Source of the DNA: Escherichia phage P896
Length of the DNA stretch: 64,000 nt
Sequence record: OL451225.1
Strand: one strand, 5' to 3'
The stretch's first letter is position 1; each line of letters starts with the position of its first letter. The translations under genes and the position numbers were made by a program. Below the pieces are notes generated by a model, which saw only the letters and a list, made by a program, of their open reading frames with translations, was not told where the DNA came from and searched no databases. This document shows, piece after piece, positions 17,620 to 47,562 of this stretch.

Positions 17620-18525
17620 CTAAAAATCGCCCGCGGCGACCTGCCAGCATTCAACACCAATATGACGCCACATCTCGACAACGTTTTGCCTATCGTCAAC
17701 GGCTAATTTCACATCATAATGTGGAGCAATTTTGTTCCAGAAAATTTCTTCCTTCACAATATCGTCTTTGCGGTCGTCGCCTTGTTCGCGCTGGATGTGA
17801 GTTTCCCAAGGAATTTCATACTTATCCATCCAGGCTTTGGTGGCTTCATAATATTCCGTTGGATTTTCTTCGGTACCAGATTCGCGCCCGGATACTGTGA
17901 TAATACTATACCCTGCGTGATGAAGCATTTTCAGGTACTGAACAACCATTTTGTTTGGTGCATCAGTAGACAGTTTTGCAAGCTCAAATGGTCCACGAGC
18001 CACATGCAAAGCTAATGTTCCGTCCAGGTCAAAGATAATGGCTTTTGGTTGACCAGGAGTTCCTTTATAAACCGGAAGACCAAGGAAGGTACGCATATGA
18101 CCATACATGGAACGAAGAACATCAATTGGTACCGCTTTTGGACCACGACGATTGTTGCGTTTAACCAGTTCAGTCCAAGGAACATCAAATACTTTATATT
18201 CAACTTTCCAGCCATATTCTTTAGCAAAGGTTTCCCACGCCAGCCGGCGTTCAGGATTCAGGTTAGTGTCTGAAATAATTACACCTTTAACAGAATCACC
18301 ACCATACAAAATACCCTTTGCAACATCAAACTGCATACAGGTTACGATGCCTTCTTTCTTCTTGGAGTATTTGTATTCATCACGGGCTTCATGACCCATG
18401 ATGGATTGACGATAATCATCGCGGTTAATGTTAAAATAACCAGGGTTCTTAGCGATGAATTCACGAGTCCATGTGCTCTTACCAGAACCAGGGCAACCTA
18501 CAGTCAGAATAATTTTCTTCATCAT
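17620..18525 (-). CDS. pseT: Polynucleotide 5'-kinase / 3'-phosphatase
   Basis: 301 aa (same as T4 PNK); N-terminal P-loop GCPGSGKST and C-terminal HAD motif DLDGT. Confidence 0.9.
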
Positions 18526-18842
18526 TTAATTCCCAACAGAGTTTTGAGGAGCTGAATGCGTAATTCAACACGACCTTCATTTAATTCAGCCACTGCTTTA
18601 TTGCTTGACTTGCGGCGGGTATTGGCGGAGATGAACATAATTAAATGCTCTTTAAGTTCCCGCATATCAACACCTTGAGCCTTCGCCGCTTTACGTAGAG
18701 CTTTACCTGCATCATCTAAGGCTTTTGCAGGGTCTTCATCATTCAATACCAACCCGCGGTCTAAATCCAAATATACTGCGCCATGGCATGAATCAATATA
18801 ATTGTCTGAACACTTGATGTAATTCTCTAATAACTCTTTCAT
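18522..18842 (-). CDS. Hypothetical protein (pseT.1-like position)
   Basis: 106-aa ORF coupled to pseT. Confidence 0.5.
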
Positions 18843-19321
18843 ACACCAAGCTCCTTATAAAGTTCTTCGCGACAGGTTTTAAGGATTTTACCAGTTTCAT
18901 AAGCTGCACTTTCAGAAACATCACCAAGTGCAGCGGCAGATTGCATTTGTCCATGGCGTTTAGCTGCATATTCAAAACTTTTCACCAATTCACGAATACG
19001 TTCTTTTTCATTGTACTCTTCAATGAATTCAGGGTATTCCCAAACAGGTCGCATCATACGATACCAATGCTGAATAGTAATATAATTACTTCCATCCAGA
19101 TTAATAATTTGCGAAGGCTTAATAGACCCTGGGGCATAAAAAGTTACCTGTCTTACTACATCAATACCGTCCACCATAGCCCAAGCAAAATCGAAAGTTG
19201 CCTTCTTTTCAATTGGTGTGCTTGCACAGGACCCTAATTTTAAGAGCTTTTGTAATACAGGAGATTTAACACCTGAAATGTATTCAGGATTAGCTACAAA
19301 AGAATTGTCACGTAAAGTCAT
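18839..19321 (-). CDS. Hypothetical early protein (about 160 aa)
   Basis: ORF with GAGGAAA Shine-Dalgarno and its own early promoter; the track ORF 18839..19438 is an upstream over-extension. Confidence 0.5.
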   Translation of the reverse strand: MTLRDNSFVANPEYISGVKSPVLQKLLKLGSCASTPIEKKATFDFAWAMVDGIDVVRQVTFYAPGSIKPSQIINLDGSNYITIQHWYRMMRPVWEYPEFIEEYNEKERIRELVKSFEYAAKRHGQMQSAAALGDVSESAAYETGKILKTCREELYKELGV

Positions 19322-19357
19322 AGTCATTTCCTCAAATATTTTATAATCCGTAGGAGC

Positions 19358-19390
19358 ATTATACTCTGCTCCCATGAGTTTGTACACTAC
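19358..19390 (-). promoter_or_regulatory. T4 early-type promoter with an inverted repeat around the -10
   Basis: Minus strand GTGTACAAA-N-GGAGCAGAGTATAATGCTCC; the palindrome GGAGCA/TGCTCC encloses TATAAT. Confidence 0.5.
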
Positions 19391-19490
19391 TTTCCAAAAA
19401 GACCCTGAACACATAAAGTGGCCGCAATTCCAAAACAAAAACAGAATGCACCAAATCTAACAATATCCCAACCAAGGCTACAGGTCTCAA

Positions 19491-19781
19491 TCATTTGCAA
19501 CGTTCCTCTTTTAGTTCAGAACGATAATAACATAACATACCTTTTTGGTCACGTACATATCTTTTTACATCATTCATCCAAATCCTGAATTCTTGCGATG
19601 CTTCAAAAGGCATACCAACCCAGGCTTGACCATCAATTACCTTCACTTCCCATTGCTGCTTATAATCAGCCAATGCAACAGGCCAATTAGGATGAACTTG
19701 GATTGTGGGCTCCACAACGGGCTTCTGGGCGCATGAAACGAGTCCAATAGCCAAACATACTGCCATGATAGATTTCATCAT
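19491..19781 (-). CDS. Outer-membrane lipoprotein spanin (o-spanin; pseT.2-like)
   Basis: 96 aa; signal peptide with lipobox LVSC; followed directly by the i-spanin candidate, as in T4 pseT.3/pseT.2. Confidence 0.55.
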   Translation of the reverse strand: MMKSIMAVCLAIGLVSCAQKPVVEPTIQVHPNWPVALADYKQQWEVKVIDGQAWVGMPFEASQEFRIWMNDVKRYVRDQKGMLCYYRSELKEERCK

Positions 19782-45692: not shown

Positions 45693-45788
45693 GTCTTTAT
45701 CTATCTTATTACCAATAAACATACCAACAATCACACCTGCGATTGCCGCAAAAATACAAAGCAATGCAAACTCAACTCCAAAACTCAT
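45690..45788 (-). CDS. Small hydrophobic protein (32 aa), coupled to gene 52
   Basis: MSFGVEFALLCIFAAIAGVIVGMFIGNKIDKD; its ATG overlaps the gene 52 stop (ATGA). Confidence 0.4.
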   Translation of the reverse strand: MSFGVEFALLCIFAAIAGVIVGMFIGNKIDKD

Positions 45789-47164
45789 AGAGCCTCCAAA
45801 TCATTAAGGTATTCAGTTTTAACATCAGTTGTCTTCCAGTACTCATGCTCAGCTTTCTTAGCCTTTGCTTCGTCTGCAAGCTTCTTGGCTTCATCAGAGG
45901 TCATATGGTAGATGTTCATCGCCACTAACTTCTCTGCATAATCGCCATATATTTCACTCGCCTGGAGTTCCTCAATCAACTTCTTACGAGGTTTCCCCTG
46001 GATAACAACCTTACCATCAATCACTTCTTTAATAAAGAAGACTTTCGCGCGGGCCAGTTTAAATGCCGCTTCAGTTTCTTTAATCTTACTGTCAATTCGC
46101 ACTTGAACATAAGTCTTACGGACATCAACGAAATCGCGAATCAGGTCAAGCGTGTTGGTGTATTCAGCCAGCTTGCCTTTGTGATTAAGCACCGTTAAGT
46201 TCTGGGAGAGCTTCTCAATCAGACCGAAGTCTTTCATGATTTTCTCATGATTCTCTTCTTCAGTACCATCCAGCTTGTATTCTTTGCGGAATTTAATCTT
46301 AAACCCGAAACCATGCTCGCCGCAGTTATCTTTCCAGGTGATAAAACCTTTCTCTTCCAGTGGGTCCAGAATTTTACTTATATACTTTTCCAGGTTCCAT
46401 TGGACCGGGATTTCAGTAATTTCCATTTGAGTCCTGGAGGTCATTTTGTATGTGCCATGAAGCTCATACTTGCCAGGCTCTTCCAATTCAACAACTTTGC
46501 CACGGAATTCTGGATATTTTACTTTCGGAGCAACCGGCTCACGACCTTCCACGATAGCTTTAACAGCTTCCTTGACGTCCTGGAACGAATGAGGAAGAAT
46601 ATCAGTAGCGAAGCCAACAGCAATCCCAGAAGTGGCGTTAAGTAATACAGTAGGAATAACAGGAAGATAAAAAGCAGGAGGCTTATGTTCTTCATCAGGA
46701 TGGACCGGAGCATATTCTGTATCCTTAAACAAGTTATAAAAGTTCTTTGAAACCCTTGCGAATACATAACGAGCTGATGATGCTTCTGGCACCATTCTGG
46801 AACCAAAGTTACCTTGCCCATCAAACATGGGGTATTCATTTTTATATGTTGCAACCAGACCAGAAGTTGCTTCTTCCGCTGATGCTTCGCCATGGTGATA
46901 ACCATAATCAGCTACGCCACCTGCAATGGATGCAACCTTATGGAATTTATTCTTATCACCGCGCGCCAGGTCTAATGCTCTCGCCATAACAAATCTGTGA
47001 ACTGGTTTAAAACCATCAATCATGTTTGGGATGGCACGACCTTCCACAGTGTATATAGCATATGACAATGCTTCCACATCAATAATGTCTTTTAGACTGC
47101 GTGGGTTAAGGGTCCCCATGGAATCACTGAACTGTTTGGACATCATACTTAAAACGTCAGACAT
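45785..47164 (-). CDS. 52: DNA topoisomerase II medium subunit gp52 (GyrA-like cleavage core)
   Basis: 459 aa (T4 is 442 aa); GyrA N-terminal features (...AIPNMIDGFKPVHRFV..., active-site region ...SSARYVFARVS...). Confidence 0.9.
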   Translation of the reverse strand: MSDVLSMMSKQFSDSMGTLNPRSLKDIIDVEALSYAIYTVEGRAIPNMIDGFKPVHRFVMARALDLARGDKNKFHKVASIAGGVADYGYHHGEASAEEATSGLVATYKNEYPMFDGQGNFGSRMVPEASSARYVFARVSKNFYNLFKDTEYAPVHPDEEHKPPAFYLPVIPTVLLNATSGIAVGFATDILPHSFQDVKEAVKAIVEGREPVAPKVKYPEFRGKVVELEEPGKYELHGTYKMTSRTQMEITEIPVQWNLEKYISKILDPLEEKGFITWKDNCGEHGFGFKIKFRKEYKLDGTEEENHEKIMKDFGLIEKLSQNLTVLNHKGKLAEYTNTLDLIRDFVDVRKTYVQVRIDSKIKETEAAFKLARAKVFFIKEVIDGKVVIQGKPRKKLIEELQASEIYGDYAEKLVAMNIYHMTSDEAKKLADEAKAKKAEHEYWKTTDVKTEYLNDLEAL

Positions 47165-47172
47165 ATATCACC

Positions 47173-47313
47173 TTACCAGATTAACGAATGTACTGCCATT
47201 ATAGCATCAGAAATAAAAAGCACAACCTGCACTAATGCAAATACAACTCCATAATACAGCGCTACCAATAATGCAGCAAGGGCTAACGAGTAGCCCAGGA
47301 TTTTCTTAATCAT
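47173..47313 (-). CDS. Small membrane protein (46 aa)
   Basis: MIKKILGYSLALAALLVALYYGVVFALVQVVLFISDAIMAVHSLIW; overlaps the next gene by ATGA. Confidence 0.4.
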   Translation of the reverse strand: MIKKILGYSLALAALLVALYYGVVFALVQVVLFISDAIMAVHSLIW

Positions 47314-47474
47314 CTATTAACCACAGAAATCATAAATTTAACAAAAGCGTCAGTTACAAACCATCCACATAAGAAATAAACAAACCCCATAGGCGGAACA
47401 AAGACACCTGCAAGAAAAAGCGTTACCAAAACAACTACTGCTATCATATAAATGAACGAAAAGACCGTTGACAT
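47310..47474 (-). CDS. Small membrane protein (54 aa; ac-like position)
   Basis: MSTVFSFIYMIAVVVLVTLFLAGVFVPP...; GAGGAAAAT Shine-Dalgarno; the track start at 47495 is a TTG upstream extension. Confidence 0.45.
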   Translation of the reverse strand: MSTVFSFIYMIAVVVLVTLFLAGVFVPPMGFVYFLCGWFVTDAFVKFMISVVNR

Positions 47475-47481
47475 ATTTTCC

Positions 47482-47562
47482 TCAGGGGCGTCCAAAGACG
47501 CCAGTTAATTTCAGATTATGACGATGCCATTGCATCACATGTTCATTATGGAAATTACTCAT
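47482..47562 (-). CDS. stp: Stp peptide (26 aa; inhibitor of type I restriction / activator of the PrrC anticodon nuclease)
   Basis: Hand-translated 26-aa [29 protein letters not shown]; size, sequence and position next to ndd match T4 stp. Confidence 0.65.

Follow-up and report, generated by a model that had tools for sequence, protein, structure and literature searches.

The window that we analyzed, a 64,000-nucleotide stretch of Escherichia phage P896 (sequence record OL451225.1), encodes the small peptide Stp (gene stp), the polynucleotide kinase/phosphatase Pnk (gene pseT) and RNA ligase 1 (Rnl1, gene rnlA). These are very probably orthologues of the three T4 genes of the Stp/PrrC/tRNA-repair conflict, acting as they do in T4. 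In T4, inhibition of the type IC enzyme EcoprrI by Stp unmasks the anticodon nuclease PrrC, and Pnk and Rnl1 then heal and seal tRNA-Lys (PMC3014915; PMC12707154). A sequence-only reading of the window had given this mechanism and had proposed that all three phage-side components are present. Its account of the mechanism agrees with both papers, and the components are there and apparently intact, with family thresholds passed and the catalytic residues that we checked retained. Our case is built on the presence of the genes, their family membership and retained residues, their synteny, purifying selection and the distribution of alleles. The three genes are:

47482 to 47562 (including the TGA stop), minus strand: stp, encoding the 26-amino-acid Stp peptide (Pfam and PHROG matches).
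17620 to 18525, minus strand: pseT, encoding the bifunctional polynucleotide 5′-kinase/3′-phosphatase, 301 amino acids (HAD_PNKP and AAA_33 matches).
20943 to 22079, minus strand: rnlA, encoding RNA ligase 1, 378 amino acids (RNA_lig_T4_1 and T4_Rnl1_C matches).

The window contains phage genes only. Its closest GenBank relatives are Shigella phage SP18 and Escherichia phage PSD2001, with ~97% DNA identity over 25 kilobases (kb), and it is 91-96% identical to the group formed by VR7, VR20, VR25 and VR26. By DNA similarity, the phage is thus placed among the T4-like phages of the VR7/SP18 group, which are of the genus Gaprivervirus type within the Tevenvirinae. In such a phage the trio is ordinary and already known: stp, pseT and rnlA are standard T-even anti-restriction and tRNA-repair genes that are in public annotation already. 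We found no tRNA genes in the window.

The 26-amino-acid open reading frame (ORF) that the earlier reading had called Stp lies at the stated coordinates, on the minus strand, and belongs to the Stp family. It matched Pfam PF08133 (Nuclease_act) with 55.3 bits, compared to a curated cut-off of 25 (E = 4.4e-15), and PHROG 6763, "activator of host PrrC lysyl-tRNA endonuclease," with E = 2e-19. Besides scoring above the profile cut-off, it has the length of the family (~26 residues), the N-proximal 18-residue core, and the T-even position: the order gp52 - 52.1 - small membrane ORF - stp - ndd is the same in T4. We looked in the window for a second stp copy, as in phage JS98, and did not find one. 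By analogy with T4 Stp, the window peptide is predicted to inhibit type IC restriction (EcoprrI, EcoR124I) and to activate latent PrrC. Our literature searches turned up no published test of a window-type Stp allele.

Both repair genes also lie at the coordinates given by the sequence-only reading, likewise on the minus strand. PseT consists of an N-terminal P-loop kinase domain (AAA_33, residues 6-144, E = 7e-21) and a C-terminal HAD (DxDxT) phosphatase domain (HAD_PNKP, residues 160-301, E = 6e-56). It aligned end to end with the T4 Pnk structure (PDB 1LTQ, E = 4.5e-158) and is 76.3% identical to T4 Pnk. If the first ATG is used, the window protein has one N-terminal methionine more than T4 PseT; the second ATG, at 18522, gives 300 amino acids, the T4 length. 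The T4 residues that we take to be essential are K15, S16, D35, R38 and R126 for the kinase and D165, D167, R176, R213, D254, D277 and D278 for the phosphatase. All 12 are kept in the alignment with window PseT.

RnlA combines a nucleotidyltransferase domain (RNA_lig_T4_1, E = 2.8e-22) with the all-helical C-terminal domain specific to Rnl1 (PF20819, T4_Rnl1_C, residues 251-370, E = 7.2e-42), which is implicated in tRNA specificity. It matched the T4 Rnl1 structure (PDB 2C5U) over its full length with E = 1e-119. T4 RNA ligase 1 (gp63, RnlA; PDB 2C5U, 5TT6) has the same domains, and at 51.8% identity the window protein is the most diverged of the trio. Presumably R54, K75, F77, K99, D101, G102, E159, E227, G228, K240 and K242 are the essential residues of the T4 enzyme; each of these 11 is kept, including the motif I KxDG lysine, which reads K100-A-D-G in the window protein. 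Gene order is also that of T4: pseT, two conserved ORFs, the spanin pair, alc, rnlA and denA.

The sequence-only reading had remarked that the peptide differs from T4 Stp at several positions, and alignment bears this out. T4 Stp (NP_049878; PF08133) is likewise 26 amino acids long, and the two peptides are 76.9% identical, with six substitutions from T4 to window (F12W, Y13H, N15H, T19L, K20T, and Q26P); the window peptide is hence not identical to T4 Stp. Residues 1-11, 14, 16-18 and 21-25 are the same, residues 1-11 despite three synonymous codon changes, and 15 of the 18 core residues are shared. In T4, the functional core is formed by the 18 N-proximal residues (PMC3014915, summarizing Penner et al. 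1995). Loss-of-function suppressors cluster in residues 4-14, loss of the last eight codons lowers activity moderately, and the first 18 residues show almost absolute conservation across nine T-even phages (PMC3014915).

We surveyed Stp alleles by tblastn of the 26-amino-acid peptide against a phage collection and by a degenerate DNA pattern scan of IMG/VR. The window peptide was 100% identical in 39 GenBank phage records, which cover all named Gaprivervirus species together with Dhakavirus JS98, IME281 and EcWhh-1. These include VR7, VR20, VR25, VR26, SP18 and RZ, in which stp has the same gene context as in the window and differs only synonymously. The T4-type peptide was present in ~440 records of the phage collection. 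RefSeq labels the window-type ORF of JS98 and VR25 "activator of host PrrC lysyl-tRNA endonuclease," and in most GenBank records the gene is uncalled. Gaprivervirus phages, and some of the Dhakavirus phages, normally carry the window variant, which is known and annotated.

Within each allele class, the codons vary and the peptide hardly does. Among the haplotypes sampled, five codons of the window type vary synonymously and none non-synonymously; for the T4 type, the numbers are 14 and one. Between T4 and the siphovirus RP180, nine codons of stp differ synonymously and one non-synonymously. Because variation within the classes is almost all synonymous, Stp appears to be a translated and constrained peptide. 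The pattern points to purifying selection, which implies translation and so supports expression indirectly.

Dhakavirus JS98 and IME281 differ from the window, which has a single copy, in carrying an extra 57-amino-acid ORF between ndd and stp and, after stp, a start-less relic of a T4-type stp. In JS98 (NC_010105; our extracted stretch L028), the intact window-type stp occupies positions 4001-4081 and the T4-type relic lies ~300 nucleotides downstream, at ~4300-4390. In both phages, a GAGTAAT microhomology marks the point where the relic is fused to a decayed 5′ remnant of gene 52.1. The relic is the trace of an stp cassette exchange between the two allele types. The 57-amino-acid ORF of JS98 encodes an unannotated membrane protein. 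A further variant, H5Y, is found in the stp genes of the Dhakavirus phages NC-G and ESCO10, in an N terminus that is otherwise invariant and that falls in the T4 suppressor-cluster region. It could represent natural attenuation or escape.

Stp-like peptides are also found in siphoviruses, namely in Kagunavirus, several Drexlerviridae genera and Skatevirus. Several are unannotated, and they pass or approach the Pfam cut-off. Carriers were Kagunavirus, Henuseptimavirus, Tlsvirus, Veterinaerplatzvirus and Skatevirus, with Webervirus just under the cut-off. Over residues 1-18, the siphovirus forms (RP180, N5822, Mishu, INT55, KFSST1, and T145P1) have in common with the T4 and window peptides the core S-N-aromatic-H-N-E-H-V/I-M-Q-F/W-Y/H/W-R. 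Some have W12 together with H13 or H15, as in the window. Their C-terminal tails are unrelated to that of T4 Stp, except in Kagunavirus and Veterinaerplatzvirus, whose peptides are T4-like almost to the end. Unlike the T-even phages, these carriers have small genomes and other gene contexts, with no Rnl1 gene nearby. In our extracted stretches, the Stp-like ORF lies at 4001-4078 in Raoultella phage RP180 (L020) and at 2501-2596 in N5822 (L022), and N5822 has a phosphatase-only HAD_PNKP gene 500 base pairs downstream of it. We do not regard the siphovirus peptides as a new observation, as Stp-like peptides were already reported in the T1-like phages TLS and Stevie (PMC4319613).

Every biochemical step of the proposed pathway we infer from T4. 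Stp would be made early, probably co-transcribed with the nucleoid disruption gene ndd and translationally coupled to it. Coupling is likely because the stp ATG follows the ndd TAA stop after 1 nucleotide and has no clear Shine-Dalgarno sequence; in T4 the two genes overlap as TAATG, whereas the window has a 1-nucleotide spacer. The N-terminal 18-residue core of Stp would then bind a type IC complex such as EcoprrI or EcoR124I and block DNA restriction. In hosts with prrC inside a type IC hsd locus, this would unmask the PrrC anticodon nuclease, which would cut tRNA-Lys 5′ of the wobble base. Pnk would heal the tRNA-Lys ends and Rnl1 would seal them.

Several points weigh against the view that the trio acts as in T4. 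Given T4-type DNA modification, type I restriction should not matter to such phages, and the selective value of Stp in them is thus unexplained. Three of the six Stp substitutions (positions 12, 13, and 15) fall within the 18-residue core, a mildly unexpected point, and positions 12 and 13 are also within residues 4-14; functional equivalence to T4 Stp is therefore not guaranteed. An obvious Shine-Dalgarno sequence is also absent before the stp ATG. This last feature, the very short length of the ORF and its lack of annotation in most GenBank records would fit a chance or non-expressed frame, but we give that explanation almost no credence. The Pfam and PHROG scores are far above threshold, the position of stp is conserved, variation within the allele classes is nearly all synonymous, and unrelated siphoviruses keep the peptide while encoding it with other codons. 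The observation lies far beyond chance, given the agreement between profile scores, synteny and synonymous-only variation.

A more serious alternative, although we consider it doubtful, is that the trio is not one anti-PrrC module. Stp would be a general anti-type-I peptide, and Pnk and Rnl1 would serve more widely, in repairing damage by other anticodon nucleases, in processing mRNA cut by RegB and, for Rnl1, in attaching tail fibers. Consistent with this, stp lies ~25 kb away from pseT and rnlA, Stp-family peptides occur in small siphoviruses without an RNA ligase nearby (PMC4319613), other roles of Pnk have been listed, and E. coli need not carry a prr locus (PMC3014915). However, the genetic link in T4 is direct, since on prr+ hosts the defects of pseT and rnlA mutants are suppressed by mutations in stp (PMC3014915), and the window has retained all three genes together. 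Moreover, this explanation complements the T4-like pathway more than it excludes it.

The sequence-only reading had also suggested that the differences from T4 Stp may have arisen by adaptation to another restriction system of the host. This suggestion found no support: the divergence is at background level, the hosts are the same and the positions are variable in the family. Identity to T4 is 51.8% for Rnl1, 60.8% for Ndd, 69.4% for gp52, 76.3% for Pnk and 87.0% for gp52.1. As the 76.9% of Stp lies within the range of the surrounding orthologues, ordinary lineage divergence suffices. Whichever of the two alleles they carry, the phages infect E. coli and Shigella. The family consensus, S-N-(F/W/Y/H)-H-N-(E/G)-H-(V/I)-M-(Q/R)-(F/W)-(Y/H/W)-(R/W)-x-(N/R/K)-(L/I/V)-K, indicates that positions 12, 13 and 15 are naturally variable, and W12, H13 and H15 also occur in other Stp-family peptides. 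Within the window-type lineage itself, P8 has H15Y, and ESCO10 has H15N and L19I. Judged from these alignments, what separates the peptide from T4 Stp is ordinary lineage divergence at change-tolerant positions.

The alternative, which takes up this adaptation idea, is that the W12/H13/H15/L19/T20 allele is functionally diverged and has other type I targets, or blocks restriction without triggering a PrrC-type sensor. In its wider form, two Tevenvirinae forms of Stp, F12-Y13-K20 and W12-H13-T20, each mostly conserved and swapped as cassettes between co-infecting phages, would recognize different type I variants or differ in tripping PrrC-like guard nucleases. We regard the functional divergence of this allele as improbable, and place the wider hypothesis of two forms equally low. 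The changes are concentrated in residues 12-20 and include several multi-nucleotide codon changes, both allele types are otherwise tightly conserved, and the JS98/IME281 relic shows that cassettes were exchanged and that one allele displaced the other. A McDonald-Kreitman-style table gave p = 2e-4 with classes defined by exact peptide. That test, however, is circular, as defining classes in this way leaves no room for replacements within a class; when residue 12 alone set the classes, the table was not significant (p = 0.16). The background-level divergence, the shared hosts and the P8 and ESCO10 variants also argue against functional divergence. In addition, F to W and Y to H retain ring side chains and both states are found elsewhere in the family. 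In T4, the residues with which Stp inhibits restriction are largely those with which it activates the nuclease (PMC3014915), so the two activities would be harder to separate. If the two forms did differ in this way, the alleles found in nature would serve as ready tools for uncoupling the inhibition of restriction from the activation of the guard and for locating where Stp binds.

By itself, a Gaprivervirus-type phage with standard T-even genes matters little. How Stp inhibits type IC enzymes was described as unknown in a 2025 review (PMC12707154), and comparing the naturally occurring alleles (those of T4 type, of window type and of the siphoviruses) could guide mutagenesis or complex modeling of Stp. 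Positions 1-3 and 5-11 are fixed in T-even phages. H5, N6, H8 and M10 are fixed across the sampled family, save for H5Y in the two Dhakavirus phages. Positions 12, 13, 15 and 19-26 are free.

The following features surround stp or lie within it:

47564 to 48013, minus strand: ndd, encoding the nucleoid disruption protein, directly upstream of stp (Phage_T4_Ndd, E = 1.4e-67).
48058 to 48086, minus strand: candidate early promoter upstream of ndd-stp, a sigma-70-like match (TGTACA-17-TATAAT) by consensus only.
47487 to 47502, minus strand: 6-base-pair hairpin GGCGUC-UUUG-GACGCC with a perfect stem, within stp codons 21-26.
47310 to 47474, minus strand: ORF for a predicted 54-amino-acid membrane protein in the slot of T4 ac (phrog_9347, unknown function).
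47173 to 47313, minus strand: gene 52.1 homologue, 46 amino acids (DUF7396, E = 5e-20; 87% identity to T4 gp52.1).
45785 to 47164, minus strand: gene 52, encoding the topoisomerase II medium subunit (DNA_topoisoIV, E = 1.4e-77; 69.4% identity to T4 gp52).

The sigma-70-like site sits 45 nucleotides upstream of ndd and could be the promoter for ndd-stp. The evidence is weak, because it is a consensus match alone and 21 such sites were found compared to 12.8 expected.

The hairpin at the end of stp directly precedes the GAGGAAA ribosome-binding site of the next ORF. T4 stp has the identical stem, with the loop UUCG where the window has UUUG, and is likewise followed by a GAGGAAA ribosome-binding site; in JS98, pairing is preserved via a G-U pair. 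The hairpin is genuine in T-even phages, although its folding statistics are modest (z = -0.85 for the window and -2.1 for T4). As there is no T-run at the hairpin on the minus strand, it is not a terminator on that strand. It may make the mRNA more stable or tune how the next gene is translated. We also considered that the C-terminal GVFGR is kept solely for the RNA hairpin GGCGUC-UUYG-GACGCC. We rejected this idea, since Kagunavirus has GVFG encoded by codons that cannot form the hairpin.

The gene downstream of stp is ac in T4 and not ac in the window. With 23% identity to T4 Ac, the 54-amino-acid protein is unrelated to it. The ORF after stp varies among close relatives; the slot is hypervariable.

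Three further features accompany pseT and rnlA:

19491 to 20131, minus strand: spanin pair, with o-spanin at 19491-19781 and i-spanin at 19778-20131 (phrog_812 and phrog_739, "Rz-like spanin").
20122 to 20625, minus strand: alc, encoding an inhibitor of host transcription and placed, like its T4 counterpart, between pseT and rnlA (phrog_1253).
22076 to 22492, minus strand: denA, encoding endonuclease II, upstream of rnlA as in T4 (GIY-YIG; phrog_1111, E = 5e-60).

The T4 equivalents of the spanin pair are pseT.3 and pseT.2. The phrog_1253 match (E = 1.6e-74) covers residues 35-201 of the ORF at 20122-20727, and relatives' annotation of the homologue of 22076-22492 is denA. Immediately upstream of the full-length alc, between alc and rnlA, is a 77-amino-acid ORF (20639-20872, minus strand; phrog_17715) whose product is paralogous to the first ~60 residues of Alc. 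In some relatives, two "inhibitor of host transcription" genes are annotated at the alc locus. Directly downstream of pseT, at 16853-17587 on the minus strand, is a 244-amino-acid Seg-like homing endonuclease gene with GIY-YIG and NUMOD3 domains. Most of this gene was present in only three of 50,697 phage records, with a best identity of 90%, and it explains the 12% of the pseT-rnlA region that is absent from close relatives.

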